A stretch of DNA of 64,000 nucleotides from the NCBI RefSeq assembly GCF_003790525.1, contig NZ_CP033635.1. The stretch is one strand, 5' to 3'. Within the stretch, counting starts at the first letter, position 1, and each line of letters opens with the position of its first letter. Both the position numbers and the translations under genes were made by a program. The stretch is from Escherichia coli (GTDB lineage: Bacteria; Pseudomonadota; Gammaproteobacteria; Enterobacterales; Enterobacteriaceae). Positions 9,195-56,009 of this stretch are shown one piece after another. Under the pieces are notes generated by a model, which ran no database searches, was not told the origin of the DNA, and saw only the letters and a program-made list of their open reading frames with translations.

Positions 9195-9764
9195 TCAACT
9201 CCGGCTACAGCCAAAATTGCGCTCACCGGTGCAGTGAGCTTTGGTATGTTCCTTCGCCAGATAGTCAGCACGTTCCAGCACCTGCTGAAAGCCAGTGTCA
9301 TCATCGCGTTCCAGCCACACCGCCGGCCAGGCCGGAAAATGCACCAGCGTGGCATGGCACCCGACATCCACTCCCAGGGCACTGCACCACGCCTGTTTAA
9401 TCATCCCGGCCAGTGATCCCGGAGCACGGTAATCACCGGCACGACACCAGGTATCCCGGTTAACCAGCAGCATCAGGTGATAGTGTTTTTTACCTTTGCA
9501 CTCCCCAAACTCCCGGGCCCAGACGTAATGCAGGGTTGTGGGATGCACGCGTTTACCTTCCCGATGCTTACGTTTCTGGTAAGCGTCGATTCGGGCTTTC
9601 AGGGCATTGATGAAGCGGGATATCACAGCTGCGTCCGTTGCTGCCGGTACATCCGGGAAACGCAGGTCAACCCGCAATGCCGTCAGGCGGGGATGAACAT
9701 TCAGTGCGTGCCGCACCGTCTCACGAATACGTTGCTGCCAGAAGGGGTTGTATTTGTAGGTCAT
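9195..9764 (-). CDS. YfjJ/YagK-family (inovirus Gp2-like) prophage protein
   Basis: N-terminus MTYKYNPFWQQRIRETV... recalled as the YfjJ/YagK family of CP4-type prophages; ATG at 9764 preceded by ggag; an upstream GTG at 9800 is an alternative start. Confidence 0.6.
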   Translation of the reverse strand: MTYKYNPFWQQRIRETVRHALNVHPRLTALRVDLRFPDVPAATDAAVISRFINALKARIDAYQKRKHREGKRVHPTTLHYVWAREFGECKGKKHYHLMLLVNRDTWCRAGDYRAPGSLAGMIKQAWCSALGVDVGCHATLVHFPAWPAVWLERDDDTGFQQVLERADYLAKEHTKAHCTGERNFGCSRS

Positions 9765-9963
9765 GGTTAAATCTCCGTATGGTTCATACGGAATAGCCAC
9801 GTCGTAAAAAATGCGCAGAGTCCCTGAAGTGACCTCCGGCAGGACACTGTCTCAGGCACTCTGTGATAACCCGAACGGTCGTCTCCGGACTGACGGTTGA
9901 ATTTTCAGCGTTGTTTTTTTAATGTAAAAAACCGGTTACGGGTAAGGCTGTGAGGAGGGAGTG

Positions 9964-12739: not shown

Positions 12740-13591
12740 TTAAACACGAGGCATATAGGTCTGATTCCGATATTCAATTGGAGTCAGACTTTTTAATTTC
12801 AGGCTAATTCTTCTGCTGTTGTAGTATTCAATATATTCCGTAACAGCATCCTTCAGTTCGCTTATATTACTGAACTCATCAAGATAAAAACACTCCGACT
12901 TTAAGGTTCCAAAGAAACACTCCACCACAGCATTATCCAGACAATTGCCTTTTCTGGACATGCTTTGTTTAATACCATGTTCTTTAAGAATATTTTGATA
13001 TTTTCTCATACGATACTGCCATCCCTGGTCAGAGTGCAGAACAGGATGCTCGTGAGGATTAAGCTTTTTGAATGCCTGATCGAGCATATTCTCAACCATG
13101 TTCATCACTGGTCTTTCCGAAAGGCTGTAAGAAATAACTTCGTTGTTGAAGAGATCTATTACTGGAGACAAATACAGCTTGCGCCCATTGACTGCAAATT
13201 CAGTAACATCGGTAACCCACTTCTCGTTTGGCCGCGTAGCCTTGAAATCTCTTTGGAGAACATTAGGGGCGGTTTGCCCTACCTCTCCTCTGTAAGAGCG
13301 GTATCGCTTGACCTTAATCGCTGCTTTAAGTGAGAGGGTTCCCATCAGGCGCTGAACAGCTTTATGGTTAATCTGTTTCCCTTCTCGATGAAGAGACAGC
13401 GTTACCCTACGGTATCCGTATCGGCCTCTATTCTCGTGATAAATCTCACCAATACGCTTTTTAACGTCCGCATACTTGTCAGGCTTGCTGAGAGCCTTTA
13501 GATGGTAATAAAACGTACTGCGCGGTATCTCCGCAGCCCTGAGAAGCTCATCAAGAGGATAAAACTGCCTTAGCTCGTTGAGTACTTTCAC
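12740..13591 (-). CDS. insK: IS150 transposase OrfB (InsK)
   Basis: 283-aa IS3-family DDE transposase; overlaps insJ by 4 bp as expected for the -1 frameshift fusion. Confidence 0.9.
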
Positions 13592-14109
13592 TTTTTCGTG
13601 GGATGAGCTAAGGCTTTCAGCTTTTTTAGATACATAAGCCGCGTTTCAAGAAATCGAACTTGCCTTTCAAGATCCTCAATACGTCGGTCTTTTGACAGCT
13701 CCAATGCTGATGCCGCTTTTTCTGGATCAACTGATATTGCAATGTTTCTTTTGGTGCCAATCTTGAGCGCGCGTAAACCAGCTTCTCCGCGCTCTTCATA
13801 AACCTTCAGCCACCTGGCTACAGAACCACTACCAGCAAGCATAAAGTGAGCAGCAGCCTGATTAAGGGACATGTGCTGCTCGATCACAGCTTTCACGACC
13901 TTAATACGCAACTCTGGATCAGCACTAACACCTTTAGGTTTGGGAATTAAACCTTTTTCTCCATGTTTTTCATAGAGGGCAACCCATGTCCTGACCTGGG
14001 TTCGGGGGACACCAAAACGTGCCGAGATGATCCTGTAACCATCATCAGTAGTGAAGTAGTGATTCACGACTTCAAGGCGCTTTTCAAAAGGGTATTTTGG
14101 CTTTGACAT
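13588..14109 (-). CDS. insJ: IS150 OrfA (InsJ)
   Basis: 173-aa product MSKPKYPFEKRLEVVNHYFTTDDGYRIISARFGVPRTQVRTWVALYEKHG... matches InsJ of IS150 as recalled. Confidence 0.9.
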   Translation of the reverse strand: MSKPKYPFEKRLEVVNHYFTTDDGYRIISARFGVPRTQVRTWVALYEKHGEKGLIPKPKGVSADPELRIKVVKAVIEQHMSLNQAAAHFMLAGSGSVARWLKVYEERGEAGLRALKIGTKRNIAISVDPEKAASALELSKDRRIEDLERQVRFLETRLMYLKKLKALAHPTKK

Positions 14110-14439
14110 ATCAGGGGCTATTCCATTTCATCGTCCAACAAAATGGGTGCAGTACATTCTCTGTGGAAACAGGGGCGCGCATTAGCTTCTCAACCAGAGA
14201 GTGTCACAAAGACAAATATTGCTGAAAATCGCATTCATCGTTCAGGCGTGAATGCCCGGAGACAAAAGCCGCTGTCCACACAGTCCCCCTCTGACCTGAA
14301 CAAAAAGCATACACACAACAGGCTCACCTGACCCCGAAAAACCATAACTTCAGCAATACCAGTGACACCAGCACGTTACCTCAGTGCCACATCTTCAGAC
14401 CGCGATCAATCTGAAATGTGACTATCGGGGCAATATCCC

Positions 14440-16024: not shown

Positions 16025-17188
16025 GTGAGGTGTATTGTGGGAAAGGAACTGGATGATATCTGCACCAGCTGTCCGTATATCGATACTGTAAAACGGCACA
16101 AACAACAGCTCGGTGCCATAGAGGAATATACACAGTGGTTAAAAAAAGAACCACGGGCATCTTATTTTTTTCTGTTCCAGCTGTATACCCGCATTCACAA
16201 TACATTTTTCTCCCAAAAGCAACAACTCCCGTTCACTCCCGGTGGCACTCACTGCCCGGAACCTGATGTCACCCTTCGGGACTTAACGCTTTCCCCTGGC
16301 TACCACAGTGATTATGCCCCTCAACCCATTCCGGAGATGGACAGTTCTGCTGTTGTTCCCCCAACTAATGAAAACACCTCGCCTCCGGAAGATACTCCCG
16401 ACAACACTCCGGCCGGAGGCAATACCGGACAAGCGGAAAAGACCAGAAACGCAGGACTCACACCCATTCCTGAAAAACGTTCAGGAATGCCCCCGGAACA
16501 TCTGCGGTTTGCCACGGGGTTTCCATCGCAACCGAAGATTGCCGGTCCCAGAGAAAAGCCGATGCGCACCGTGCATCCGGATAAAATCTACCGTGAAATT
16601 ATATGGTTCTGCTCCAGTTACCTGCTGAAATCCGGACCAGAGGCTACGAGGACGATTATCAACTCAGTATTCTCTGAATGGGCCAGCATAAACAATGATT
16701 ACCCCTCCCCCTTTTCGTGGGTGGACAGCAGGGACAGTGAACAGTGTGACTGGTTATGGAACGCCATGCAGATCCGGTGTGTGGGAACCCCGCTGAATCC
16801 CCTTACCCCGGAGCAGAAATACTGGTTTGCCTGCGCCACGTTTGATAACTGGGAGGGCTGGAATGAGCAACAGGTACAGTTTTTACTGGAAAGTAATCCC
16901 AGACGGAACAGAGCGAAGTTTACGCAGGTCTCCTTCCAGGCCCCCAGGATTCAGCATAAAGCGATTCTTCTTGATGAGCTGAAAAGTGCCCGGGAGCAAC
17001 AAAAAAGGCGTGATGAACGTGCTGATGGTTCCGTCCCTCTGAAACTGTCCGGAAAAATCCACAAACAGCTTGAAAGTATTGCCCGAAGTCGTGGTGTCCT
17101 CCCAAAAAAACTGCTGAATGAAATGATTGAGCAGGCGTACCATGATTTGGTGGCAACCAGGCAGAACAGCCAAATCGATTCCAGATAA
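16025..17188 (+). CDS. Hypothetical protein with Pro/Thr-rich linker and possible C-terminal ribbon-helix-helix segment
   Basis: 387-aa ORF with GTG start (uncertain); low-complexity PPTNENTSPPEDTPDNTPAGG; C-terminal KLSGKIHKQLESIARSRGVLPKKLLNEMIEQAYHDL resembles an RHH DNA-binding motif. Confidence 0.4.
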   Translation: MRCIVGKELDDICTSCPYIDTVKRHKQQLGAIEEYTQWLKKEPRASYFFLFQLYTRIHNTFFSQKQQLPFTPGGTHCPEPDVTLRDLTLSPGYHSDYAPQPIPEMDSSAVVPPTNENTSPPEDTPDNTPAGGNTGQAEKTRNAGLTPIPEKRSGMPPEHLRFATGFPSQPKIAGPREKPMRTVHPDKIYREIIWFCSSYLLKSGPEATRTIINSVFSEWASINNDYPSPFSWVDSRDSEQCDWLWNAMQIRCVGTPLNPLTPEQKYWFACATFDNWEGWNEQQVQFLLESNPRRNRAKFTQVSFQAPRIQHKAILLDELKSAREQQKRRDERADGSVPLKLSGKIHKQLESIARSRGVLPKKLLNEMIEQAYHDLVATRQNSQIDSR

Positions 17189-17271: not shown

Positions 17272-18144
17272 ATGAATCCGTCTGATGCCATTGAGGCAAT
17301 TGAAAAACCGCTCTCCTCCCTGCCTTACTCACTTTCCCGTCACATCCTGGAACATCTGCGCAAACTCACCAGTCACGAACCCGTGCCTGGCATTATGGGT
17401 AAAAGCGGGGCCGGTAAATCCTCACTCTGTAATGCGCTGTTTCAGGGGGAGATCACCCCGGTCAGTGATGTTCACGCCGGCACCCGGGAAGTGCAGCGCT
17501 TCCGTCTGAATGGCCATGGTCACAGCATGGTTATCACTGACCTGCCCGGGGTGGGCGAGAGCCGGGACAGGGATGCAGAGTATGAAGCCCTGTACCGTGA
17601 CATTCTGCCCGAACTGGACCTGGTACTGTGGCTGATTAAAGCCGATGACCGTGCCCTGTCTGTGGATGAGTATTTCTGGCGACACATCCTGCACCGGGGA
17701 CATCAGCGGGTACTGTTTGTGGTGATGCAGGCCGATAAAACGGAGCCCTGCCATGAATGGGATATGGCCGGTATTCAGCCTTCTCCCGCACAGGCACAGA
17801 ACATTCGCGAAAAAACGGAGGCGGTATTCCGTCTGTTCCGGCCCGTACATCGGGTTGTTGCCGTATCGGCCCGCACCGGCTGGGAACTGGATACGCTGGT
17901 CAGTGCGCTCATGACAGCACTTCCCGACCATGCCGCCAGTCCCCTGATGACCCGCCTGCAGGACGAGCTGCGCACGGAATCTGTCCGCGCTCAGGCCCGT
18001 GAACAGTTTACCGGTGCGGTGGACCGGATATTTGACACGGCGGAGAGCGCCTGTATTGCCTCTGTTGCACGCACGGTTCTGCGTGCCGTCCGTGACTCGG
18101 TGGTCTCTGTTGCCCGCGCGGTATGGAACTGGATTTTCTTCTGA
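17272..18144 (+). CDS. YeeP/YfjP/YkfA-family prophage GTPase, apparently intact
   Basis: P-loop GKSGAGKSSLCNALF and G3 DLPGVGES; family recalled from CP4-44/CP4-57/CP4-6; start set at the ATG giving MNPSDAIE (ORF extends upstream to a GTG). Confidence 0.8.
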   Translation: MNPSDAIEAIEKPLSSLPYSLSRHILEHLRKLTSHEPVPGIMGKSGAGKSSLCNALFQGEITPVSDVHAGTREVQRFRLNGHGHSMVITDLPGVGESRDRDAEYEALYRDILPELDLVLWLIKADDRALSVDEYFWRHILHRGHQRVLFVVMQADKTEPCHEWDMAGIQPSPAQAQNIREKTEAVFRLFRPVHRVVAVSARTGWELDTLVSALMTALPDHAASPLMTRLQDELRTESVRAQAREQFTGAVDRIFDTAESACIASVARTVLRAVRDSVVSVARAVWNWIFF

Positions 18145-18261
18145 ACCCGGTGGTGATGTACCAGGCTGTTGTTACAGATTTTTAACTCCATGAAAACACT
18201 ATGCAAACGCAGCCATACCCGGGTTGTCCCCTTGCGTTGTGTTTCTCAAGTTAATAGAATG

Positions 18262-18305
18262 CATCGATCGTTACTATCATATCGATCGTTATAAACGATC
18301 GTTTG
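18262..18305. promoter_or_regulatory. Cluster of three CGATCG-core repeats upstream of the dynamin operon (putative operator)
   Basis: catcgatcgtta (18262-18273), atcgatcgtta (18281-18291), and the 12-bp perfect palindrome aaacgatcgttt (18294-18305); 57 bp upstream of the dynamin start. Confidence 0.3.
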
Positions 18306-18361: not shown

Positions 18362-20758
18362 ATGCACGAAAAGAACATCGCCCTGCTTTGTGATGAAGCC
18401 GACCGACTTTTGCAACTGAACATTAATCTGCTCCGGCAAATGGTTGAGGAGCCAGATGTGTTATCTGACAGTAAGAACGAAAACAGACTGCTTTTTGATA
18501 AACAGAAAGCACTGAAAAGAATTGAGGAGCTGGAGGGCGAACAAATCAAAACCGCCCGCAGGGAGATGGTGCTGGCTGTTGTCGGCACGATGAAAGCAGG
18601 CAAATCAACCACCATCAACGCCATTGTGGGGCAGGAAATTCTGCCTAACCGTAACCGCCCCATGACCTCTGTACCGACGCTCATCCGCCACGTTCCCGGA
18701 AAAACTGAGCCGGTTCTCCATCTGGAACATATTCAGCCTGTCCGCAATTTATTAATCACACTGCAGGAAAAACTCGCCACCCCGGCAGGACAGCAGGTCG
18801 CACAGACCCTGCAGCAAACCGGGGATACCCGCGAACTGCTGGATATTCTGACGGATGATGGCTGGCTCAAAAATGAATACCACGGGGAGGAGGAAATCTT
18901 TACCGGACTGGCATCGTTAAACGATCTGGTTCGTCTTGCTGCGGCAATGGGGACTGAATTTCCTTTTGATGAATACGCAGAAGTGCAGAAACTGCCGGTG
19001 ATCGACGTGGAATTCAGCCATCTGGTGGGGATGGATGCATGCCAGGGAACACTCACACTGCTGGATACCCCCGGCCCTAATGAGGCCGGACAACCGCAGA
19101 TGGAAGTGATGATGCGGGATCAACTGCAGAAAGCCTCTGCGGTTCTGGCTGTGATGGATTACACCCAGATGAACTCAAAAGCGGATGAAGACGTCCGTAA
19201 AGAGCTTAATGCCATTGCTGACGTATCAGCCGGCCGCCTGTTTGTACTGGTCAATAAATTTGATGAGAAAGACCGCAATGGCGATGGGGCAGATGCCGTA
19301 CGCCAGAAAGTTCCGGCAATGCTGAACAGCGATGTGCTGCCCGCCTCCCGCGTTTATCCCGGATCCTCACGCCAGGCATACCTGGCTAACCGTGCGCTTC
19401 ATGAGTTACGGAAAAACGGAACCCTTCCTGTTGATGAAGCCTGGGTCGATGATTTTATCAGAGGTGCCTTCGGTTGCATGAAAAAAGAATACGTCTGTAA
19501 AGACAGTGAACTGGCAACTGAAGGGGCGACAGACCTGTGGGAAGGCTCACTTATCGATCAACTGATAACGGAAGTCATACAGAGCTCACATTCCAGAGCT
19601 GCGGCACTGGCGGTTGACTCTGCCGCCGCAAAACTGATGCAGAATGCAGAAAATATCAGTGAATACCTGTTGTTACGCCATCAGGGGCTACAGCAAAGCA
19701 TTCAGTCACTGCAGTCGCATATCACCAGCCTGCTTGCGGATATCCGGGAAATCGCGGACTGTCAGGAGCAGATGACCACTGATGTCAGAATGGCCATGGA
19801 GGAGATCGATACTAAAACCCGGGAATTACTGACGGGGGTCTGCACCTCACTGGAAGAGGAGCTGAATGACTATTTCAGAAGCGGTAAACGCAAAGAACAG
19901 CAAATGCTGGAGGAAGAAGACGCAGAACAACGAAGGTCTCAGTCCGGATTATGGGGGAAAATTTCTCAATGGTCCGGTATCAACAACCAGGGCCGGGAGG
20001 ATTACAGGAAACGAGATTTTGCCCCGGACAGCCCCGAAATAAAATTCAGTGATCGCAGGGAAGCCCTTGAACTGATGACGCAAATCGAATCGACCGTGAC
20101 CAGCCTGCACCGTGAGGCTGAAGCACAGTTCCGGCCTGAGCTGGAGAAAATCGTCAGCGGGATTGAAACAGGTTTTCGTGGCACGGCCCTGTACGCCACA
20201 GAAAACATTGCCGGTCGCATCAATGCCCGCCTGGAGGATGAGGGCTTTACCGTAAAAATCAGTTTTCCGGCAGTCAGCCAGTTACAGACCCGGCTCGCGG
20301 TAAAAATAAATCTGAGTGCGCTTATGGAGGAAAGAACGGAGACCGTCACCCGTCGCCGTCGGCAGAGTGGCGTATGGGGAACCGTTTGTCGATGGTTTGG
20401 CACCAGTGACCTGGGCTGGGAAAACTATGACGAGGATGTGAGTCGCAGCGTGATCAATATCAACAAGGTCAGAGAGGAAGTTATGTCACTGACCCGGGCA
20501 TATTTCGGGGAGCTGCAGGCATCCATTGAGCAGGATATTAACCAGCCCGTCCGCCAGGAAATCGATGCCTTTTTCTGCGCATTCAGGGAGAAAGTTGAAC
20601 AACTGCGTAACACGCTGATTCAGAGCTCTGAAGATCATAAACGCGATCAGCAGGCGCAGGAACGGCTTACCGGGCGACTTCAGGCATTAAATGAAAGGGT
20701 TCCTGAGCTCATTACTGACAGTAAGGCGCTGAGGGAAGAGCTGGAGACAATGCTGTGA
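18362..20758 (+). CDS. Bacterial dynamin-like GTPase, CrfC/YjdA-like
   Basis: 798 aa; G1 GTMKAGKST, G3 DTPGPNE, G4 NKFD; N-terminal block REMVLAVVGTMKAGKSTTINAIVGQEILPNRNRPMT matches E. coli CrfC as recalled; long helical C-terminal stalk; RBS aggaagg. Confidence 0.9.
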   Translation: MHEKNIALLCDEADRLLQLNINLLRQMVEEPDVLSDSKNENRLLFDKQKALKRIEELEGEQIKTARREMVLAVVGTMKAGKSTTINAIVGQEILPNRNRPMTSVPTLIRHVPGKTEPVLHLEHIQPVRNLLITLQEKLATPAGQQVAQTLQQTGDTRELLDILTDDGWLKNEYHGEEEIFTGLASLNDLVRLAAAMGTEFPFDEYAEVQKLPVIDVEFSHLVGMDACQGTLTLLDTPGPNEAGQPQMEVMMRDQLQKASAVLAVMDYTQMNSKADEDVRKELNAIADVSAGRLFVLVNKFDEKDRNGDGADAVRQKVPAMLNSDVLPASRVYPGSSRQAYLANRALHELRKNGTLPVDEAWVDDFIRGAFGCMKKEYVCKDSELATEGATDLWEGSLIDQLITEVIQSSHSRAAALAVDSAAAKLMQNAENISEYLLLRHQGLQQSIQSLQSHITSLLADIREIADCQEQMTTDVRMAMEEIDTKTRELLTGVCTSLEEELNDYFRSGKRKEQQMLEEEDAEQRRSQSGLWGKISQWSGINNQGREDYRKRDFAPDSPEIKFSDRREALELMTQIESTVTSLHREAEAQFRPELEKIVSGIETGFRGTALYATENIAGRINARLEDEGFTVKISFPAVSQLQTRLAVKINLSALMEERTETVTRRRRQSGVWGTVCRWFGTSDLGWENYDEDVSRSVININKVREEVMSLTRAYFGELQASIEQDINQPVRQEIDAFFCAFREKVEQLRNTLIQSSEDHKRDQQAQERLTGRLQALNERVPELITDSKALREELETML

Positions 20759-21660
20759 CTTCACCATTTATTCAACAAATTGCTGATAACCGGGTATGTC
20801 AGGTACTCACCTGTCTTCCTGAAAAATTTGTGGTTGATTTCGCAAACGGAATCGATGTTGCACAGGAGCATATCCGCACGGCCGGAGAGCGCACGTTCTT
20901 CCGGCGTTTAAAAGAGGGGCTGACCGGCGAAGGCGCTGCACGGCAGAATGCCATCAATGCGTCGCTTGCACAGGGCGTTGAGGCGTCCCTGCGCTGGCTG
21001 ACGGAGATGACAACGTCACTTGCCACCACAAACTACGCGATTACCCGGGTAAACGACAGGGTCAGTTCACTGGTCAGTGATACAGCCAGGCTGGCGCATT
21101 ATTCCGCAGATACGCGGGAGCAGTTACTCACCCTGGCCGATCAGGTTCACCATAAACTGAATCATCTTGAAGAAAAACTCCACCGTGTTGACCAGGTTCA
21201 GCGGGCGCAGTTACATCTTGAGCAGATATTCTCATGGTGGAGCGCCGGGCGATATGCGTCATTTTCCCCTGCCGGACGTTGTTATGTGGCACTTGAAGAG
21301 CTTCGCTGGGGCGCGTTTGGTGATGTGATACGTCAGAGCGAAACAGGCCAGGTTAACCAGCTACTGGATATTCTCAGACATAAAGCATTAACGCAGATGG
21401 CACAGGAGAGTGGCGGTAGTGCAACCGTGCGTCTGAACACTCTGGACTGGCTTGGTGGTCAGGGCCGGGAGCAGGCAGATAACGAGTGGCATGACGCGAT
21501 TAACTGGCTGGGAGACTGGTGCAGTGAAGAGCAGCATCCGGTGATCTGGTCAACCACGCAGGCTGCAGAACACTTACCGGTTCGCATGCCTCGCCTCTGC
21601 TCTGCAGAACGCCTCTCTGAAAGTATGGTCGATGAAATATTTCAGAAGGGGGCTGCATGA
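20755..21660 (+). CDS. Dynamin partner protein (YjcZ-like, by synteny with crfC-yjcZ)
   Basis: 301-aa ORF; GTG start overlaps the dynamin stop (GTGA); mostly helical; family assignment rests on position, not recalled sequence. Confidence 0.7.
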   Translation: MTSPFIQQIADNRVCQVLTCLPEKFVVDFANGIDVAQEHIRTAGERTFFRRLKEGLTGEGAARQNAINASLAQGVEASLRWLTEMTTSLATTNYAITRVNDRVSSLVSDTARLAHYSADTREQLLTLADQVHHKLNHLEEKLHRVDQVQRAQLHLEQIFSWWSAGRYASFSPAGRCYVALEELRWGAFGDVIRQSETGQVNQLLDILRHKALTQMAQESGGSATVRLNTLDWLGGQGREQADNEWHDAINWLGDWCSEEQHPVIWSTTQAAEHLPVRMPRLCSAERLSESMVDEIFQKGAA

Positions 21661-22727
21661 GTACAGAAATGAAAACGGGGCTGGTGCTGTCCGGTGGCGG
21701 GGCGGTGGGCGCTTATCAGGCGGGAGTGGTTAAGGCACTGGCAGAGTGTGGTACACAGATCAGCATGGTTTCAGGGGCCAGCATTGGCGCATTCAATGGT
21801 GCCATTATCGCGGCCTCTACCGATCTGTCAGAAGCTGCCGTACGCCTGGAGGCGCTCTGGGATCATCTGGGGAATAATCAGGTGCTGTCGGTAAACAGAT
21901 TGGTTTACTTTTCATTGCTGAAAAAATTGTTCCAGGCAATGAACCTCTGCCAGATCCCCGGACGTGCAGGAGCACTGCTTACGACGCTTCTTCGCCATAT
22001 ATCGACAATCAACGGGTTTGACAATCTGATGGCTCAGCCGTTGTTGTCAGATGAGCCCCTGACAGCGCTGATGGATCATTATCTTGATACTGATGCTCTG
22101 GCAGACGGGCTACCGCTGTATGTGTCGCTGTACCCCACAGAAGGGGGCATGCAGGATATTATTGACTGCATTCGTGCTGAACTGGGTGTCGGAACCACGA
22201 AAAACGCCGTTTTTCAGCATATCCAGAGCCTGCCCCGCGGACAGCAGAAAGAGGCTCTGCTTGCGTCAGCCGCGCTGCCCCTGCTGTTCCGTCCCCGTGA
22301 GGTTCAGGGGACAATGTTCGGTGATGGTGGTATGGGAGGATGGCGAAATATGCAGGGAAATACCCCTGTGACGCCTCTGGTCGATGCCGGATGCAATATG
22401 GTGATTGTGACGCATCTGAGTGACGGTTCTTTATGGGATCGCCAGGCTTTTCCGGACACCACAATCCTTGAGATCCGTCCCCGGAAAAGGCTGAAATATG
22501 CAGGTGATGGTGGCAACAGCGGCGGTCTGCTCAGTTTTACATCGGCACATACCGACGCCTGGCGTCAGCAGGGCTATGAAGACACGATGCTGGCGATGGA
22601 GCATATCCGGAAACCGCTGGCAGCACGTCAGGCACTGACCCGGTCAGAGGCGGTATTGCAGAAAAGCCTGGATATAACGGAAGAGGCAGATTTGGCACTG
22701 AGAAACGCGATGGCCCGGATTAAATAA
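21657..22727 (+). CDS. Patatin-like phospholipase
   Basis: 356 aa; Gly-rich oxyanion SGGGAVGAYQAG, lipase GxSxG as GASIG, catalytic Asp in FGDGGM; ATG overlaps the upstream stop (ATGA). Confidence 0.85.
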   Translation: MSTEMKTGLVLSGGGAVGAYQAGVVKALAECGTQISMVSGASIGAFNGAIIAASTDLSEAAVRLEALWDHLGNNQVLSVNRLVYFSLLKKLFQAMNLCQIPGRAGALLTTLLRHISTINGFDNLMAQPLLSDEPLTALMDHYLDTDALADGLPLYVSLYPTEGGMQDIIDCIRAELGVGTTKNAVFQHIQSLPRGQQKEALLASAALPLLFRPREVQGTMFGDGGMGGWRNMQGNTPVTPLVDAGCNMVIVTHLSDGSLWDRQAFPDTTILEIRPRKRLKYAGDGGNSGGLLSFTSAHTDAWRQQGYEDTMLAMEHIRKPLAARQALTRSEAVLQKSLDITEEADLALRNAMARIK

Positions 22728-22743: not shown

Positions 22744-22770
22744 CGCCACCGCCTGTGGTGGTGTTTTTCC
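22744..22770 (+). terminator. Putative rho-independent terminator after the patatin gene
   Basis: ccacc-gcctgt-ggtgg hairpin followed by tgttttt, 17 bp after the patatin stop. Confidence 0.5.
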
Positions 22771-23057
22771 TGTCTGGTGTTATTGAAAATATTTTCAGAT
22801 ATATATTACCTGAGAGAAAGTTTTACCCCTCACCTGTCAATTCACTCACTGGAAATTTAATTATGAAATTACCTGTAAAGTTATTAATGAGCCTTATATC
22901 TCTGGTCAGCGTTATTGCACGTGCCGGGGAATATAAAAATTACAGCCGGGATGAAATAAAATACTGGCGATATACATCATACAAGGGGGGGAAACTTCCG
23001 GAAGGTTTCACTGATGAGAAATTTTCCAGCGCCATTTACAACGGAAGAATATTTACA

Positions 23058-23546
23058 ATGAAACGTTTACATACCCTTATGTTATTTCTGGCGGTTCTGT
23101 TCACGGGCTTTAACTTTAACGCAGAAGCGGCTACCGTAAAACAAGCTCTTAGTTGTAACCCGGAAGCCTGGGCTGAACAACCTGGAGCGTGTCCATCAAC
23201 GTACGAGTTGTACGAAGGTGACGCTACCTACAAAGCCGCTATCGACAAAGCATTAAAACCGGTCGGACTGAGCGGCATGTTCGGTAAAGGCGGCTATATG
23301 GATGGCCCTGGTGGAGGTATCACGCCAGTAAACATTAACGGTACAGTCTGGTTCCAGGGCGACGGTTGCAAAGCCAATACCTGCGGCTGGGACTTTATCG
23401 TAACACTCTATAACCCAAAAACCCATGAAGTTGTTGGCTACCGTTACTTTGGTTTAGATGACCCGGCCTACCTGGTTTGGTTCGGTGAAATTGGCGTGCA
23501 TGAATTCGCGTATCTGGTGAAAAACTACGTAGCTGCGGTTAACTAA
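23058..23546 (+). CDS. Ivy-like (inhibitor of vertebrate lysozyme family) periplasmic protein, divergent
   Basis: Signal peptide MKRLHTLMLFLAVLFTGFNFNAEA; KAA...KGG...CKANTCGWDFIV aligns with Ivy KAA...KGG...CKPHDCGSQRIAV as recalled; an in-frame upstream ATG at 22863 also precedes a hydrophobic stretch. Confidence 0.5.
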   Translation: MKRLHTLMLFLAVLFTGFNFNAEAATVKQALSCNPEAWAEQPGACPSTYELYEGDATYKAAIDKALKPVGLSGMFGKGGYMDGPGGGITPVNINGTVWFQGDGCKANTCGWDFIVTLYNPKTHEVVGYRYFGLDDPAYLVWFGEIGVHEFAYLVKNYVAAVN

Positions 23547-23561
23547 TTTAAGGAGTCTATC

Positions 23562-23972
23562 ATGAAAACTTTTATCAAAACTTTACTCGTTGCTGTAACT
23601 ATTCTGTTCTCTGTCTTCGCTACTGCGAAACAAGTAAAACTGCCAAATAACATCAAATACGTTAATACTACAGAAGCGTTTTCCTGTACCGAAATTGACG
23701 GTATGAATTGCCAGACAAAGAATCAGTTCAACTATAAAGATAACAGCTATGTTTTCGTGCTTGAGCGTGGTGGTGCCTGGTGCTACGACTACACTGTCTC
23801 GGTAGTTAACCTGAAAACCGGGAAAGCACAAATGATTGAATACGGGGACAATCAACTGTGCTCAGGTAGCAACAAACCGTTCTTCGAAATCAAAAATGGC
23901 GTACCGACGGTAGGAGTCATCGACACATCCGGAAAACCTGTCGTTGTAGCCCAGGACAAACTTAAAATCTAA
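23562..23972 (+). CDS. Small secreted Cys-containing protein, hypothetical
   Basis: 136 aa; signal peptide ending ATA-KQ; four Cys; strong aaggag RBS; 15 bp after the Ivy-like gene. Confidence 0.6.
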   Translation: MKTFIKTLLVAVTILFSVFATAKQVKLPNNIKYVNTTEAFSCTEIDGMNCQTKNQFNYKDNSYVFVLERGGAWCYDYTVSVVNLKTGKAQMIEYGDNQLCSGSNKPFFEIKNGVPTVGVIDTSGKPVVVAQDKLKI

Positions 23973-26880: not shown

Positions 26881-27254
26881 ATGAAAACATTACCTGTATT
26901 ACCCGGGCAGGCGGCCAGTTCTCGCCCGTCTCCTGTTGAAATCTGGCAGATACTGCTGTCCCGACTGCTGGACCAGCACTATGGCCTCACACAGAATGAC
27001 ACACCTTTTGCCGATGAACGTGTGATTGAGCAGCATATTGAGGCAGGCATTTCACTGTGTGATGCGGTGAACTTTCTCGTGGAAAAATACGCGCTGGTGC
27101 TACCGACCAGCCGGGATTCAGCGCCTGTACCCGCTCTCAGTTAATAAACAGCATCGATATCCTCCGGGCTCGCAGGGCGACCGGCCTGATGACCCGCGAC
27201 AATTACAGAACGGTAAATAACATTACCCTGGGTAAGTATCCGGAGGCGAAATGA
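26881..27254 (+). pseudogene. cbtA: Toxin CbtA (YeeV), frameshifted
   Basis: First 73 residues match CbtA, then the frame ends at 27144; the expected C-terminus INSIDILRARRATGLMTRDNYRTVNNITLGKYPEAK is in another frame (27150-27254); consistent with a single-base deletion near 27103. Confidence 0.8.
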
Positions 27255-27445
27255 TGACACTGGAAGCCGACAGCGTTAACGTACAGGCGCTGGATATGGG
27301 GCACATTGTCGTTGACATTGATGGTGTTAATATCACTGAACTGATTAATAAGGCCGCTGAAAACGGTTATTCACTCCGCGTGGTGGATGACCGTGACTCT
27401 ACCGAAACACCGGCAACTTATGCCAGCCCTCACCAGTTGCTGTAA
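27251..27445 (+). CDS. yeeW: YeeW-like small protein
   Basis: 64-aa ORF overlapping the cbtA stop, in the position of K-12 yeeW. Confidence 0.45.
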   Translation: MMTLEADSVNVQALDMGHIVVDIDGVNITELINKAAENGYSLRVVDDRDSTETPATYASPHQLL

Positions 27446-42338: not shown

Positions 42339-43404
42339 TGAGTCAGAAGTATCTTTTTATCGATCGCGATGGAACCCTGATTAGCGAACCGCCGAGTGAT
42401 TTTCAGGTGGACCGTTTTGACAAACTCGCCTTTGAACCGGGCGTGATCCCGGAACTGCTGAAGCTGCAAAAAGCGGGCTACAAACTGGTGATGATCACTA
42501 ATCAGGATGGTCTGGGAACACAAAGTTTCCCGCAGGCGGATTTTGATGGACCGCACAACCTGATGATGCAGATCTTCACCTCGCAAGGCGTGCAGTTTGA
42601 TGAAGTGCTGATTTGTCCGCACCTGCCCGCAGATGAGTGCGACTGCCGTAAACCGAAAGTAAAACTGGTGGAGCGTTATCTCGCTGAGCAAGCGATGGAT
42701 CGTGCCAACAGTTATGTGATTGGCGATCGCGCGACCGATATTCAACTGGCGGAAAACATGGGTATTAATGGTTTACGCTACGACCGCGAAACCCTGAACT
42801 GGCCGATGATTGGCGAGCAACTCACTAAACGAGACCGTTACGCCCACGTAGTGCGCAACACCAAAGAGACGCAAATTGACGTCCAGGTGTGGCTGGATCG
42901 TGAAGGTGGCAGCAAGATTAACACCGGCGTTGGCTTCTTTGATCACATGCTGGATCAGATCGCCACCCACGGCGGTTTCCGCATGGAAATCAACGTCAAA
43001 GGCGACCTCTATATCGACGATCACCACACCGTCGAAGATACCGGCCTGGCGCTGGGCGAAGCGTTAAAAATTGCCCTCGGCGATAAACGCGGTATTTGTC
43101 GCTTTGGTTTTGTGCTGCCGATGGACGAATGCCTTGCCCGCTGCGCGCTGGATATCTCTGGTCGCCCGCACCTGGAATATAAAGCCGAATTTACCTACCA
43201 GCGCGTGGGCGATCTCAGCACTGAAATGATCGAGCACTTCTTCCGTTCGCTCTCTTACACTATGGGCGTGACGCTACACCTGAAAACCAAAGGTAAAAAC
43301 GATCATCACCGTGTAGAGAGCCTGTTCAAAGCCTTTGGTCGCACCCTGCGCCAGGCCATCCGCGTGGAAGGCGACACCCTGCCCTCGTCAAAAGGAGTGC
43401 TGTA

Positions 43405-48731: not shown

Positions 48732-50138
48732 TTAATCCAGCCATTCAGTATGGAACACACCTTCTTTATCAATGCGCTTATAAGTATGCGCCCCGAAATA
48801 GTCACGCTGTGCCTGGATCAGGTTCGCAGGCAGAACAGCGGCACGGTAGCTATCGTAATAGGCAACCGCAGCGGCGAAGGTCGGAACCGGGATACCGTTC
48901 TGTACTGCATAAGCGACGACATCGCGCAGCGCCTGCTGGTAGTCATCGGCAATTTGCTTGAAGTACGGGGCCAGCAGCAGGTTAGCGATCTGCGGATTTT
49001 CGGCATATGCATCGGTGATTTTCTGCAGGAACTGCGCACGGATGATGCAGCCAGCACGGAAAATCTTCGCGATTTCGCCGTAGTTCAGATCCCAGTTGTA
49101 CTCTTCAGACGCAGCACGCAGCTGAGAGAAGCCCTGAGCGTAAGAAACGATTTTGCCCAGATACAGCGCACGACGAACTTTTTCGATGAACTCAGCCTTG
49201 TCGCCAGCTGGCTGCGCTTGCGGACCAGAGAGAACTTTAGATGCGGCAACGCGCTGATCTTTCAGAGAAGAGATATAACGTGCAAACACAGACTCGGTAA
49301 TCAGCGACAGCGGTTCTCCGAGATCCAGCGCGCTCTGGCTGGTCCATTTACCGGTACCTTTGTTAGCCGCTTCATCCAGGATCACATCAACCAGGTAGTT
49401 ACCGTCTTCATCTTTTTTAGTGAAGATGTCTTTGGTGATGTCGATCAGGTAGCTGCTCAGTTCACCGTTATTCCACTCGGTAAAGGTCTGTGCCAGTTCT
49501 TCGTTAGAGAGATTCAGGCCGCCTTTAAGCAGAGAATAGGCTTCAGCAATCAGCTGCATATCACCGTATTCAATACCGTTGTGAACCATCTTAACATAGT
49601 GACCTGCGCCATCGGCACCAATATAGGTAACGCATGGCTCCCCGTCTTCAGCCACTGCGGCGATTTTGGTCAGGATCGGTGCAACCAGTTCATAGGCTTC
49701 TTTCTGTCCGCCAGGCATAATGGAAGGACCTTTCAGCGCACCTTCTTCACCACCGGAAACACCGGTACCGATAAAGTTAAAGCCTTCTGCAGAAAGCTCA
49801 CGGTTACGACGAATGGTGTCCTGGAAGAAGGTGTTACCACCATCAATGATGATGTCACCTTTATCGAGGTATGGCTTGAGGGAATCAATAGCAGCATCCG
49901 TGCCTGCACCTGCTTTCACCATTAACAGGATGCGACGAGGCGTTTCCAGAGATTCAACAAACTCTTTCACCGTATAGTAAGGAACCAGTTTCTTGCCTGG
50001 ATTTTCGGCAATAACTTCTTCCGTCTTTTCACGGGAACGGTTGAAAATAGAGACGGTATAACCACGGCTTTCGATGTTGAGCGCAAGGTTGCGCCCCATC
50101 ACTGCCATACCGACGACGCCAATCTGTTGCTTTGACAT
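48732..50138 (-). CDS. gnd: 6-phosphogluconate dehydrogenase (decarboxylating)
   Basis: 468 aa [27 protein letters not shown]... matches Gnd. Confidence 0.95.
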
Positions 50139-50327
50139 TGTTTACTCCTGTCTGAGGTGCTCACCGCTGCAAATAAGCGGCTGAATATGAGTAACGGGTT
50201 TACTTCTAATATATTTAGGAAAGGCTTATCTCTCTATGTCCCAAAAACTAAACCTTTTGGATACATCGACTATCAGATCTAAAAGACATACATTTTATAA
50301 TATCAAAACCTAATAAAACCATTCTAA

Positions 50328-51083
50328 TTAAAGTCTCTTAGCAAGAGCTCTTACTGAATAAATAAAAAAAAGAACTAATGACTTGAATAATGAAAAAGAC
50401 AATACTCTTCTATAAATATTCCATTGCCACATAGCTGCAGTGAACTTATTTGAGGACAACCCCGTATTATGTATATAATATCTGGCAAGATTTTTCTGTA
50501 TGCAATAAACCAGCTTTGCTTTTTTTACTATTGTTAACCACATTAGGTAATCTTCATGACCAATTTCCTGTTGATATACTTTCCCTATCTGAGTTGAGTC
50601 ATAAATACCAGTTAAGTTACCAATATGATTAGATTGCAGCATATTATTATATGTAATAACTTCCTTAAACCTTCTTTCTTTTATTACATTTGTATCAGCA
50701 TAAAAAACCTCATAGTTTGAACAAACAACTTTATAATTTCCAGCACTCAATATTTTCAGTTGTTCTTCGAGTTTAGTCTCAAACCAAACATCATCACTAT
50801 CACAAAATGCAATATATCTACCATTACAAGCAGCAATCCCAACATTTCTAGCCGAAGATACTCCCTTACCATTTCGATTTAGTAAATAAACAATACGTTC
50901 ATCGATAATAGACTTAATAATATGTTCTGTTGAATCCGACGAATTATCATTGATTATATATAATTTAAAATCCTCATACGTTTGTTTTAAAATTGACAAA
51001 ATACTATCTTTAATAGTTTCTTCAGCATTATAAGCTGGCATAATTATTGATACTGTTTCATTACCCATAAAAAGCCCCATCAT
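50328..51083 (-). CDS. Family 2 glycosyltransferase (O-antigen)
   Basis: IIMPAYNAEETI and DSDD motifs; AT-rich; start uncertain among three N-terminal Met codons. Confidence 0.8.
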   Translation of the reverse strand: MMGLFMGNETVSIIMPAYNAEETIKDSILSILKQTYEDFKLYIINDNSSDSTEHIIKSIIDERIVYLLNRNGKGVSSARNVGIAACNGRYIAFCDSDDVWFETKLEEQLKILSAGNYKVVCSNYEVFYADTNVIKERRFKEVITYNNMLQSNHIGNLTGIYDSTQIGKVYQQEIGHEDYLMWLTIVKKAKLVYCIQKNLARYYIHNTGLSSNKFTAAMWQWNIYRRVLSFSLFKSLVLFFIYSVRALAKRL

Positions 51084-51092
51084 TATTCAAAA

Positions 51093-52175
51093 TTAGAACA
51101 AGTATGATTTATAATAAAATTCTGCGATAGGAAACAGAATAACCTTTAATAGATACGGAATAAAACAGTATAATAATGAGAGATACAAACAAACGAAGTA
51201 TCTATTCTTAACAGTGTATTTAATAACATAAATTATCGGGATTATATAAAATATCACAAAATAGTAGTTAACCCTTGAAATAAAATCAAAACTGAGCATT
51301 AACAAATAAACATTCACCGTTAAAGCCCACATACCAATTAACTTTCGCTCATTATCTTTTATAACAAAAACCTTTAGTTTTAATAAGATAAGGAATAGCA
51401 AATTAAATGGAATCCAATACATTTTAGTTAGTACATTCATTATACTCACAGAACTTTCATCGAATGAGGATAAATAATGTGAGTAATAGGGGAATAAATT
51501 TTGCACTATATAATAAATAATTTGCTGAAGATAAGAGAAAAGAAACAATAAAAAAGTCAACACATAAATTTTAAAAGCATGTTTACACGCAAAAAAATAC
51601 GTCTTATCTGGAATTACGAGAAAACAGAAACCAATCAAAGCAGAGCGATGAAAACCTAAAGCAGCAACCATTAATATGAAAGATAACAATAATTTCCCTC
51701 TAAACTTATAGAGAATTGATATTGCAAACAAATAAATTGAAAATGATGCTCTTATTATATTCATCTGGGTATGAAATAAATTAGTAACAACCCAAAAAAG
51801 AAAAAAAACCAAAACAAGAGAATAACCATAGTTTTTCCATAACTGAAAAACAATAACAAACACCAATAAAGATTGTAATAAAGCAGTTAACGCAATAAAA
51901 CCTTTGAATCCCCATCCAGTCAGTTGATATAGCCTCATATATCCATAAAAGAGATATTCCTTATTTTGATAAAAGGTATCGAGTTCATTAGCATTATTAT
52001 ATATATTTTGATAGCTAAAATAATCTGTTCCAACACCGTATTGAAATGCTGGCAACAGAGTCATAAAAAAAACGCATATGCCCCCGATAATTATTTTCCC
52101 ATAAGGAATACGATTATATGCATTAAACAAAAACATATAAAAAAGCACAATAGTATTAATTATAATATATATCAT
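51093..52175 (-). CDS. wzy: O-antigen polymerase Wzy (EpsG-like)
   Basis: 360-aa highly hydrophobic polytopic protein, AT-rich, inside the O-antigen cluster. Confidence 0.7.
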   Translation of the reverse strand: MIYIIINTIVLFYMFLFNAYNRIPYGKIIIGGICVFFMTLLPAFQYGVGTDYFSYQNIYNNANELDTFYQNKEYLFYGYMRLYQLTGWGFKGFIALTALLQSLLVFVIVFQLWKNYGYSLVLVFFLFWVVTNLFHTQMNIIRASFSIYLFAISILYKFRGKLLLSFILMVAALGFHRSALIGFCFLVIPDKTYFFACKHAFKIYVLTFLLFLFSYLQQIIYYIVQNLFPYYSHYLSSFDESSVSIMNVLTKMYWIPFNLLFLILLKLKVFVIKDNERKLIGMWALTVNVYLLMLSFDFISRVNYYFVIFYIIPIIYVIKYTVKNRYFVCLYLSLLYCFIPYLLKVILFPIAEFYYKSYLF

Positions 52176-52858
52176 TTTTCTGCAATAAAAAGACGTTCAG
52201 CTTCGATAGAACTAGAGTTTAAATTTACAGGATGAGAAAAGTATTGACCATAAAATACATTATCCAGTTTCGCATTTCTTACAATGTAACTCCAGTCATC
52301 ACAAAAGAAACTATTTTCTTCCATTAACCTCAGAATTCTCTCAGCGCCTTTAATATCCACACAATAACAGCATGTCCTATATAACCAACGATGTGTACCT
52401 AATATTACTTTTCGCACCCCACATATTGATTTTCTCCCCATTATGACACGACTAAAGCTTTTTAGACCATCCTGTCCACCCAAAATATAGACACTTGATG
52501 AGCAGAATGAATTAATCATTTCGTCCAAATATTTAACATTTTCCTTGGGCAAAACGTCATCTTCCAAAACCACCAACCATTTCCTTCCACTCGCCAAAAA
52601 TTCCGTTAAAGCTTTTTTATGACTCAAGAAACATCCCAATTCCGACGGAGTTAAAAAACCTCTTCCAAACATCTTTGAGGACCTAATTTTAAATAAAGAA
52701 AAGTATTTTTCTGCCAATAATTTCCGTCCATCAATAGCATGAGAAACACGACATTCTATGTCATACTTCGCCATTTCATTTTTTAATTTATCTCTCCTTT
52801 CATTATGTTGAGGTAATGATATTATACAAAAGTCAACAAGTTTTCTTTTCATTCTCAC
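52172..52858 (-). CDS. Family 25 glycosyltransferase (LPS/O-antigen)
   Basis: N-terminal CIISLPQHNERRDKL... pattern typical of GT25 (Lic2B/LgtB-like). Confidence 0.65.
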   Translation of the reverse strand: MRMKRKLVDFCIISLPQHNERRDKLKNEMAKYDIECRVSHAIDGRKLLAEKYFSLFKIRSSKMFGRGFLTPSELGCFLSHKKALTEFLASGRKWLVVLEDDVLPKENVKYLDEMINSFCSSSVYILGGQDGLKSFSRVIMGRKSICGVRKVILGTHRWLYRTCCYCVDIKGAERILRLMEENSFFCDDWSYIVRNAKLDNVFYGQYFSHPVNLNSSSIEAERLFIAEK

Positions 52859-53664
52859 TTCCTTTTACTGGACAGTTGTTTTAATCTTTTATAAAAATAT
52901 GAAAGCATATATCTTATAACTGTTATGAATGCAAGACAAAATGCATTATTTAGGGACGTTCTGTAAACCTCCAGAGCAAGCTCAACTATTTGTTTTGGTG
53001 TATATTTATATCCCCGTCCATAGGATATTTTAATTTGAGACCCTCCCAGAGTTCTCACAGAAATTAGCGACATAACAGAAATTAGTTTTAGTTTTAATGG
53101 TATATCTTCCCCCCAAGTCAAATATCTTATTTTATAAGCATCAATGATTTTATTTCTACGATACAACGTATTAGATTGATTCCAACCAAGAGTAAATTGC
53201 TTTGGATACCCTAAACACTCTATACATTCTTGTATTAATCCTCTGTTATATTTTTTTATTGTGAAAATATTACCTGTCTCGTTTTTACAATTAAACTCTT
53301 CCACATAATCACTTCTAAAGACGATGGCATCAACCTCATTATTTTCTAATAAATAATTAACACCCCAATCAAGAGCAAATTCAGCAATATAATCATCAGT
53401 ATCAAGAAAAAAACAAAATTCTGTATCTGAATCCAATAAGCCTACATATCTTGCGTGAGAAGGGCCTTGATTAAGAGTATAGGTGTAATTACACCCGTAA
53501 TTATTACAAATAATTTTATTTTTGCGCGCTTCATCAGAAACTGAACCATCATCAATTACAAAAATCTTACACTGCTTATAGCTACTGATTATTTTAATAT
53601 TTTCCTCTAATATTATGCTCGAATTATAAGTTGGTATTATTATTGATATTCTTTTATTATTCAT
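52855..53664 (-). CDS. Family 2 glycosyltransferase (O-antigen)
   Basis: ISIIIPTYNSS and DTDD motifs. Confidence 0.8.
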   Translation of the reverse strand: MNNKRISIIIPTYNSSIILEENIKIISSYKQCKIFVIDDGSVSDEARKNKIICNNYGCNYTYTLNQGPSHARYVGLLDSDTEFCFFLDTDDYIAEFALDWGVNYLLENNEVDAIVFRSDYVEEFNCKNETGNIFTIKKYNRGLIQECIECLGYPKQFTLGWNQSNTLYRRNKIIDAYKIRYLTWGEDIPLKLKLISVMSLISVRTLGGSQIKISYGRGYKYTPKQIVELALEVYRTSLNNAFCLAFITVIRYMLSYFYKRLKQLSSKRK

Positions 53665-53672
53665 TCTATTGC

Positions 53673-55738: not shown

Positions 55739-55786
55739 ATAATAGGGGGGAGGGTATAGATACTACCCCGCAAGACGCAAAAAACA

Positions 55787-55797
55787 ACGCTACCGCC
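55787..55797 (-). promoter_or_regulatory. ops element (GGCGGTAGCGT) of the JUMPstart region, RfaH-dependent antitermination site
   Basis: Plus-strand acgctaccgcc is the reverse complement of GGCGGTAGCGT, 49 bp upstream of wzx on the transcribed strand. Confidence 0.7.
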
Positions 55798-56009
55798 CCT
55801 GGCTTAACAGCTACCAGTTCACTAACACAAACTTATAACATGGCAATCTTAATAAATTCGTCTCTAATAAAACAAGAGACCGTTTTCTAAATCACATGAA
55901 GCAAAAAATCACCATAAAAGATCTAAACATCATCTGATATTTTAAACATTAGCTTAGATAATCGGTTGACGACTTTCATATTACTATTTTCTCCCGCCTT
56001 TTATCTTCA

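Follow-up and report, generated by a model that had tools for sequence, protein, structure and literature searches.

A Horizontally Mobile Dynamin–RdcB–Patatin Operon of Escherichia coli Preceded by an Ag43-Type Switch Region: A Candidate GTPase-Controlled Lipase System

The 64,000-nucleotide stretch of the Escherichia coli contig NZ_CP033635.1 (assembly GCF_003790525.1) that was analyzed here, and that we call the window, carries in a CP4-44-type genomic island three adjacent genes for a dynamin-like GTPase, a protein of the RdcB/YjcZ family and a patatin-like phospholipase. These genes, together termed the triad, form a real, widespread and horizontally mobile operon, whose E. coli copies are mostly preceded by a homolog of the regulatory switch of agn43. 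In the best-supported reading, which draws on analogies with two known systems, a GTPase switch would control, at the inner membrane, the lipase that the operon also encodes. The present analysis adds to earlier reports of such operons that the family essentially always occurs as a triad save for the enterobacterial RdcAB pair, that neither effector swapping nor phage carriage is seen, and that the operon has an Ag43-family switch.

Gene Content and Organization of the Operon

The transcription unit contains the following features:
18362-20758, + strand: open reading frame (ORF) for the dynamin-like GTPase, 798 aa, ATG start
20755-21660, + strand: ORF for the RdcB/YjcZ-family protein, 301 aa, GTG start over the dynamin stop codon
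21657-22727, + strand: ORF for the patatin-like phospholipase, 356 aa, ATG start
22744-22763, + strand: terminator-like GC-rich hairpin with the stem at 22747-22763, then TTTTTCC (consensus match only)

Both gene junctions are 4-nt overlaps (GTGA and ATGA), and the RefSeq coding sequences in genomes identical to the window delimit the same three genes, in agreement with the gene content and translational coupling proposed in a first-pass annotation of this DNA. The hairpin lies 17 nt past the patatin stop codon and, judged from its sequence, is the likely end of the transcription unit. Pfam assigns the three products to Dynamin_N (1.6e-17), YjcZ (4.7e-70) and Patatin (8e-24), and the motifs listed in the same annotation, namely dynamin G1, G3 and G4 and the patatin hallmarks, are all found in the window proteins. 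Since conservation of these motifs exceeds 90% across 30-34 diverse homologs, the ORF pattern is not due to chance.

Distribution and Co-Evolution of the Three Genes

A scan of species-representative genomes with the YjcZ-family profile yielded 79 loci, which were then analyzed by tblastn and ORF extraction. All loci outside the core Enterobacteriaceae have the dynamin, YjcZ and patatin genes contiguous on one strand; contiguity holds in 34 of the 34 non-redundant non-enterobacterial loci, with overlaps of usually 4, 1 or 8 nt, and an overlap of the dynamin gene with the YjcZ gene is a conserved family trait. The carriers are spread widely over Gamma- and Betaproteobacteria and include Pantoea, Erwinia, Budvicia, Serratia oryzae, many Pseudomonas, Allochromatium, Thiodictyon, Thiorhodospira, Marinospirillum and HdN1, as well as the betaproteobacteria Macromonas, Aquaspirillum, Paenacidovorax, Gallionella and Yanghanlia. 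Pairwise identities correlate across the three genes (r = 0.85-0.87), and the gene tree is at odds with taxonomy, which points to horizontal transfer of the triad. The three genes thus co-evolve and constitute a genuine unit, and the co-occurrence raised as a possibility in the first-pass annotation is borne out in many taxa.

The loci that lack the lipase gene (48 of 48) are the chromosomal rdcAB genes of Enterobacteriaceae, and this pair clade is monophyletic. An exhaustive profile search of 1.84 billion representatives returned only 468 YjcZ clusters, with about 10 of the top 145 being of the pair type. The four most divergent YjcZ members that could be placed (25-28% identity) have a patatin gene directly 3' in 4 of 4 cases, and a dynamin is also seen in the two of their contigs that extend far enough upstream; effector swapping was not observed in these four contexts. 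The presence of the patatin even beside the most divergent YjcZ members indicates that the lipase is a fixed partner. The K-12 RdcAB pair accordingly looks, from these sequence comparisons, like a narrow lipase-less branch. It is taxonomic breadth that suggests the direction from triad to pair, the tree being unrooted; without an outgroup, it could not be rooted to establish descent of the pair from the triad.

Among 5426 complete E. coli genomes, the triad, scored as at least 80% coverage of the 4.6-kb triad sequence, is present in 2444 (~45%) with up to five copies per genome, and its carriers include sequence type 131 (ST131), O157:H7, O103 and Nissle 1917. The first-pass annotation had considered that the window might hold the only crfC-yjcZ locus of the genome in a new position. 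The canonical crfC-rdcB pair, located in K-12 within yjdM-rdcA-rdcB-proP, is present in 5416 of the 5426 genomes, and the window triad instead occupies the CP4-44 site; therefore the triad is an additional paralogous locus rather than a relocated canonical one.

Two variants of the gene layout were observed. In Methylomonas koyamae (locus L085), the dynamin and YjcZ genes are separated by 405 nt, as opposed to the overlap elsewhere, and an extra 99-aa ORF without a Pfam match lies between them at positions 9617-9916; the same layout is found in the metagenome contig L086. A contig of a metagenome-assembled genome labeled 'Synergistaceae' (L038) has, upstream of the triad dynamin, a second partial dynamin-like match at positions 1413-2957 (35% identity over 533 aa) and may represent a paired-dynamin variant. 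Database annotations of the triad proteins are unreliable. Public names for the window dynamin are inconsistent or wrong ('dGTPase', 'clamp-binding protein CrfC', 'putative vimentin'), and the RdcB-like protein is named 'chemotaxis protein' or 'methyl-accepting chemotaxis protein', with truncated fragments called 'ferredoxin reductase'.

Properties of the Encoded Proteins

The GTPase domain of the 798-aa protein spans approximately residues 61-330, with the Dynamin_N match covering residues 71-299, and contains the G1 motif GTMKAGKST (residues 75-83), the G3 motif DTPG (235-238) and the G4 motif NKFD (298-301); the C-terminal half is helical. Conservation of G1, switch I, G3 and G4 exceeds 90% among 30 homologs. 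Residues 663-690 form a basic, Trp-rich loop that is kept in 30 of 30 triads and is partly degenerate in the pair clade. No hydrophobic or transmembrane segment was found in the dynamin (maximum KD19 1.16), nor any transmembrane segment in the other two triad proteins, and the sequence match to BDLP (2j68) is limited to the P-loop region. The description of this protein as CrfC-like holds at the family level: the NCBIfam CrfC model NF007368 matches over the full length, however at 556.2 bits against a curated cutoff of 1146, and identity to K-12 RdcA is 33%. CrfC binds the clamp through the motif 41-QLALP, in which Q41 is essential (PMC6374313). This motif is absent from the window dynamin, where RLLFD stands opposite it in the alignment, and the triad clade shows no conservation at this position. 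Identity with CrfC is thus ruled out by score, clamp motif and locus.

The middle protein matches the YjcZ profile (PF13990, model length 272 positions) over residues 26-296 and is 30% identical to K-12 RdcB. Its AlphaFold2 (AF2) model consists of a helix at residues 59-164 and a helical C-terminal domain; a fold search with this model returned only generic helical bundles and no functional lead, and a sequence search for solved relatives found none that was significant.

The third protein has the GGGxxG motif of the oxyanion hole at residues 13-18, a GxSxG motif with Ser42 and a DGG motif with Asp223, and Ser42-Asp223 are the predicted catalytic dyad; G13-G15, S42 and D223-G225 are invariant among 38 patatin sequences. 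The AF2 model (pLDDT 77.5) shows a canonical core, a lid region of low confidence and a 60-residue C-terminal helix at residues 296-355, and its closest folds are PlpD, CapV, CapE, VipD and ExoU. The triad patatin is cytoplasmic.

An Ag43-Type Dam-OxyR Switch Upstream of the Dynamin Gene

The 217-nt region 5' of the dynamin gene is homologous to the regulatory region of K-12 agn43/flu and to the yeeP-cah intergenic region of O157:H7. It contains the following elements:
18232-18260, + strand: promoter with -35 TTGCGT at 18232-18237, a 17-nt spacer and -10 TAGAAT at 18255-18260, assigned by homology to agn43/cah
18263-18299, + strand: OxyR-type operator with three GATC (Dam) sites at 18266, 18284 and 18297, homolog of the agn43 switch

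Both promoter hexamers and their spacing are conserved in the alignments with K-12 yeeP-flu and O157 yeeP-cah, as is the sequence CGATCGTTTrTAGT after the GATC sites. The GATC spacing is 18/13 in the window compared with 19/13 upstream of K-12 flu. The operator matches 16 of 20 positions of the OxyR tetramer consensus, in comparison with 14 of 20 for K-12 agn43, and a score of at least 14 is reached by 0.5% of random 217-nt pieces of the window. The sole other spot in the 64 kb with three GATC sites within 40 nt (42941-42958, in the his operon region) is probably a chance cluster. The switch site is conserved in the Escherichia triad copies, and 1985 E. coli genomes together contain 2203 copies of the switch segment, as against 3409 triad places (~65%); this segment was not found upstream of the triads in other genera.

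In agn43, Dam methylation of the three GATC sites blocks the OxyR repressor and results in heritable ON and OFF states (PMC3764049, PMC4872104, PMC2909390). Features that the window copy has in common with the agn43/cah switch are both promoter hexamers, three GATC sites at conserved spacing and the OxyR consensus. It differs in that it would directly drive the triad with no autotransporter gene, and in the length of the 5' leader (~96 nt for the triad, ~222 nt for agn43). Based on this homology, expression of the triad is predicted to be phase-variable, with ON and OFF subpopulations.

The window island and K-12 CP4-44 are at the same site (cobU...tmaR/yeeA). The gene order in K-12 is yeeP-isrC-flu-yeeR-yeeS, and in the window it is the YeeP-like GTPase gene, the triad, two hypothetical genes, a DUF932 gene, an antirestriction gene and yeeS. 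The triad therefore indeed sits in the Ag43 slot, as was noted in the first-pass annotation, but it is not a mere alternative to Ag43: O157:H7 strain TW14359 (locus L105, 1807-10364) has a yeeP-like GTPase gene, the switch, cah, a gap of 110 nt and then the triad. From such an ancestor, the window layout looks to have arisen by deletion of the autotransporter gene.

Mobility and Genomic Contexts

The triad has a strong link to mobile elements. The cassette was found on 44 plasmids, mostly as a 62%-identity variant that is flanked by insertion sequences (IS) and resides on IncF plasmids in the genera Klebsiella and Enterobacter and in E. coli. On chromosomes, it is inserted between ileS and lspA alongside Uma2 and Fic genes in Allochromatium, in an integrase/DUF927 element with a WYL regulator in Pseudomonas aestuarii, between fecIR-like genes and a TonB-dependent receptor gene (fecA) in Methylomonas, and in an integrase element in Plesiomonas. 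Pectobacterium and Morganella carry it in CP4-44-type islands in a different slot from that of the window, and in the JGI contig L092 its surroundings are ordinary chromosomal genes. No triad homologs were found in 50,697 phage genomes by tblastn or in IMG/VR by a scan. The earlier designation of the triad as prophage cargo hence does not stand, as the carrier is an integrative island of the CP4-44 type, for which neither an integrase nor phage structural genes are annotated within the window.

The link to defense islands appears moderate. In one context, the neighbors include PDC-S11 and a type I restriction-modification system; the validated system DS-31 lies ~870 bp from a predicted dynamin on an ECOR contig (DefensePredictor supplement, PMC13092281), and EcoKI and Druantia sit on islands of E. 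coli MP1 that carry triad-type operons (PMC12922286). The HEPN protein of DS-31 is absent from the window and from all other loci examined.

Neighboring Genes in the Window

Two small genes with signal-peptide-like N-termini follow the triad (22863-23546 and 23562-23972). The 227-228-aa product of the former seems to be made up of two halves that each bear a signal peptide; it gave no Pfam match at all, for which reason its interpretation as an Ivy-type lysozyme inhibitor was dropped. The sole match of the 136-aa product of the latter is PHROG 8968 of unknown function. Both genes are confined to Escherichia islands, and one of them is interrupted by ISEc12 in ST131. A five-gene operon comprising them was rejected, because they do not co-travel with the triad outside Escherichia and the terminator-like hairpin follows the patatin gene. 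On the other side, the core island gene for a YeeP-like small GTPase (17272-18144) is preceded by a conserved gene for a 383-aa hypothetical protein with a Pro/Thr-rich middle part (16037-17188), which had no match in PADLOC or PHROG and is specific to E. coli islands. The YeeP-like GTPase has a weak PADLOC LeoBC match in its P-loop region (4.7e-8), and the Pectobacterium, Morganella and Serratia oryzae loci contain homologs of it (44-48% identity) that do not adjoin the triad. A link of these two upstream genes to the triad was likewise discarded for lack of co-travel outside Escherichia.

Further along the island, the CbtA toxin gene (26881-27257) is frameshifted according to the annotation of an identical genome, with its antitoxin partner cbeA remaining intact. 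An IS150 copy (12740-14110) and several IS fragments (ISL3, IS66 and IS21 remnants) disrupt the left part of the island. An Rfam scan over the island gave no match. Downstream of the his operon region, positions 50000-56000 have a G+C content of 27-33% and a strongly negative GC skew and presumably represent the O-antigen gene cluster.

Previous Reports and Comparison with Known Systems

Contrary to the first-pass annotation, which regarded the system as undescribed, operons of this type are already on record. Two islands of E. coli MP1 carry homologous dynamin-RdcB-phospholipase operons, which according to RNA-seq data are up-regulated in Kapi1 lysogens more than any other genes in every condition, and which were proposed as a putative phage defense system without a functional test (PMC12922286, BMC Genomics 2026). 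Because of the Ag43-type switch, the reported induction could simply reflect the comparison of an ON-phase with an OFF-phase clone rather than prophage cross-talk, a colony-picking pitfall that has been described for Ag43 (PMC3764049). In addition, E. coli 'dynamin family proteins' of 798 and 794 aa, scored at 6.7 and 7.7, are labeled 'Predicted novel defense gene' in the supplement of DefensePredictor (PMC13092281, Science 2026); these dynamins are outside the list of tested systems and are unmentioned in the main text. Their match to the triad is based on organism, name, length (798 aa) and operon geometry, and it could not be confirmed that WP_000544741.1 from that supplement and WP_000544732.1 from the window belong to the same cluster. 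The triad is thus neither wholly undescribed nor prophage cargo, and is a variant of the RdcAB and dynamin-defense kinds. PADLOC v2 has no matching model for it, in line with the first-pass annotation, which did not recognize the triad as a named system.

The closest characterized relatives are K-12 RdcA and RdcB, which activate the membrane-bound diguanylate cyclase DgcE by direct interaction in a manner dependent on GTP hydrolysis, the activity of RdcB having been tested for the K-12 protein only (PMC6510439). The two loci have in common the two protein families, their order, the 4-nt overlap, the GTPase motifs and the YjcZ core residues, and probably represent the same kind of GTP-hydrolysis-dependent switch. 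However, the window pair is only 33%/30% identical to RdcA/RdcB, is island-borne and additional to the canonical pair, lacks the clamp motif of K-12 CrfC/RdcA and always has a patatin as the third gene. The output protein of K-12 RdcAB, DgcE, is encoded elsewhere in the genome, whereas the triad lipase is in the same operon. The regulation is also different, with the triad under an Ag43-type switch and the K-12 pair in the FlhDC/FliA regulon (PMC6510439).

Eleos (LeoA with LeoBC) and Bacillus subtilis DynA are similar to the triad in encoding a dynamin-superfamily GTPase on mobile or accessory DNA, and the remote-homology note of DefensePredictor for its dynamin names LeoBC (PMC13092281). Unlike Eleos, the triad has one dynamin rather than a pair, and its YjcZ and patatin partners are not part of Eleos; in PADLOC, the window dynamin has no LeoA match and a weak, partial LeoBC match (residues 29-89, 8.6e-5), and the DynA model gives 28.7 bits against a cutoff of 1600. 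With the CapV/CapE effectors of cyclic oligonucleotide-based antiphage signaling systems (CBASS), the triad shares the patatin core, these being among the best structural matches (9jeh, 9ioq, 8zr9), and the concept of a membrane-damaging lipase effector. Nevertheless, a CD-NTase or cyclase gene is missing from the triad operon, the score with the NCBIfam CBASS_lipase model is 19.5 bits (cutoff 200), the PADLOC CBASS effector match covers only the N-terminal 65 residues, and the window patatin has a distinct 60-residue C-terminal helix. Membership in Eleos, DynA or CBASS is therefore ruled out by profile scores and operon content. Legionella VipD is a patatin phospholipase that is activated by binding of the GTPase Rab5. 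As a structural neighbor of the window patatin (4kyi, the Rab5 complex), it is an informative precedent for the mechanism but serves as an analogy only, being a secreted effector that targets eukaryotes, has another C-terminal domain and binds a host small GTPase.

Proposed Function and Alternative Explanations

Control of the lipase by a GTPase switch from the same operon finds precedents in the activation of DgcE by RdcA/RdcB, with its dependence on GTP hydrolysis, and in VipD-Rab5; the coupling of a GTPase module to a lipase effector, put forward in the first-pass annotation, remains the most economical reading. In the mechanism that we propose, the dynamin-like GTPase and the helical RdcB-like partner would form a GTP-dependent switch or scaffold that licenses the cytoplasmic patatin lipase, leading to hydrolysis of inner-membrane phospholipids. 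A trigger, possibly a membrane perturbation or a change in the GTP pool, would release the lipase and thus afford defense of the abortive-infection type or against mobile elements. In most Escherichia islands, including that of the window, the operon would be transcribed from an Ag43/Cah-family promoter with a three-Dam-site OxyR operator.

We tentatively consider a role in conflict or abortive infection to be the most likely function of the triad, given its mobility, its dangerous effector, the machine-learning (ML) prediction, the defense neighbors in some contexts and a phase-variable control that would fit a costly function. Several observations weigh against such a role. The swapping of effectors that is typical of modular defense systems was not seen, the triad is absent from phages and satellites, and with no transmembrane segment in the three proteins the basic, Trp-rich loop is the sole basis for an association with the membrane. 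None of ten neighbor proteins in the window's own island has a defense match, and defense neighbors are also absent in the Methylomonas, JGI contig L092 and Pectobacterium contexts. No PADLOC v2 model fits the triad, and our literature search found neither a functional study of it nor a phage-protection test. The operon is outside the tested systems of DefensePredictor despite its presence in ~45% of E. coli genomes; it is likewise not known to have emerged from earlier functional screens of E. coli DNA. A more specific scenario, which we regard as possible but with distinctly less confidence, is that of a new abortive-infection class, in which the dynamin and YjcZ proteins would sense a membrane or GTP-pool disturbance and license the lipase without a second messenger, RdcA/RdcB would be a domesticated lipase-less descendant, and the Ag43-type switch would serve bet-hedging in E. 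coli.

The principal alternative is a membrane-remodeling or envelope-maintenance module for repair, reshaping or vesiculation, comparable with LeoABC in enterotoxigenic E. coli and DynA in Bacillus, that, together with Ag43/Cah, would confer a phase-variable phenotype of the envelope or of host interaction. Vesicle formation and membrane surveillance are known roles of bacterial dynamin-like proteins (PMC12922286), the O157:H7 triad lies directly 3' of the adhesin gene cah under a shared switch of a type that normally governs a surface phenotype, some lineages have the triad among ordinary chromosomal genes, and the fixed lipase partner is as expected for a co-adapted machine. Nonetheless, we find this explanation rather unlikely, since a housekeeping membrane function would not usually show such a patchy distribution with horizontal transfer, the three proteins have no transmembrane or obvious paddle segments, a cytoplasmic phospholipase without regulation is intrinsically dangerous, and the ML defense score is high. 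Clearly less probable is an addiction or stabilization module, in which the GTPase pair would restrain a latent lipase toxin so that island loss kills or disadvantages the cell. The constant location on islands, insertions and plasmids, often beside toxin-antitoxin (TA) genes (CbtA/CbeA, Fic, CcdAB), and a stoichiometry fixed by translational coupling agree with this idea; yet three large proteins of ~1450 aa in total go far beyond the needs of known TA modules, there is no sign of a labile antitoxin, and the conserved GTPase catalysis suggests signal processing rather than simple sequestration.

Slightly more improbable again is a second RdcAB system that would feed into cyclic di-GMP (c-di-GMP) or biofilm control through DgcE or some other MASE1 protein, the lipase being an accessory. 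The shared families, the RefSeq name of the middle gene ('diguanylate cyclase regulator RdcB family protein') and the biofilm-related Ag43 slot would suit it, whereas the low identity to RdcAB (30-33%) and the lack of linked GGDEF/EAL genes in every context examined would not. Moreover, the triad spans Gamma- and Betaproteobacteria and the lipase-less pair is confined to Enterobacteriaceae, making DgcE an unlikely ancestral output; to our knowledge, DgcE is restricted to enterics. The least credible explanation is a CrfC-type clamp-binding factor for nucleoid partition. The UniRef and NCBI source names and the full-length match to the CrfC model point to it, but it is refuted at the motif level by the replacement of the essential 41-QLALP, which is not conserved in the family, and is further contradicted by the score of 556 bits against the cutoff of 1146 and by the true crfC elsewhere in virtually all E. 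coli genomes.

Implications

The predicted phase variation could explain why screens miss the triad. Should the triad prove to be an immune system, the known mechanisms of effector control would be joined by a GTPase-gated lipase; if, moreover, RdcA/RdcB indeed descend from it, the family would provide an evolutionary origin for the RdcAB/DgcE biofilm switch.

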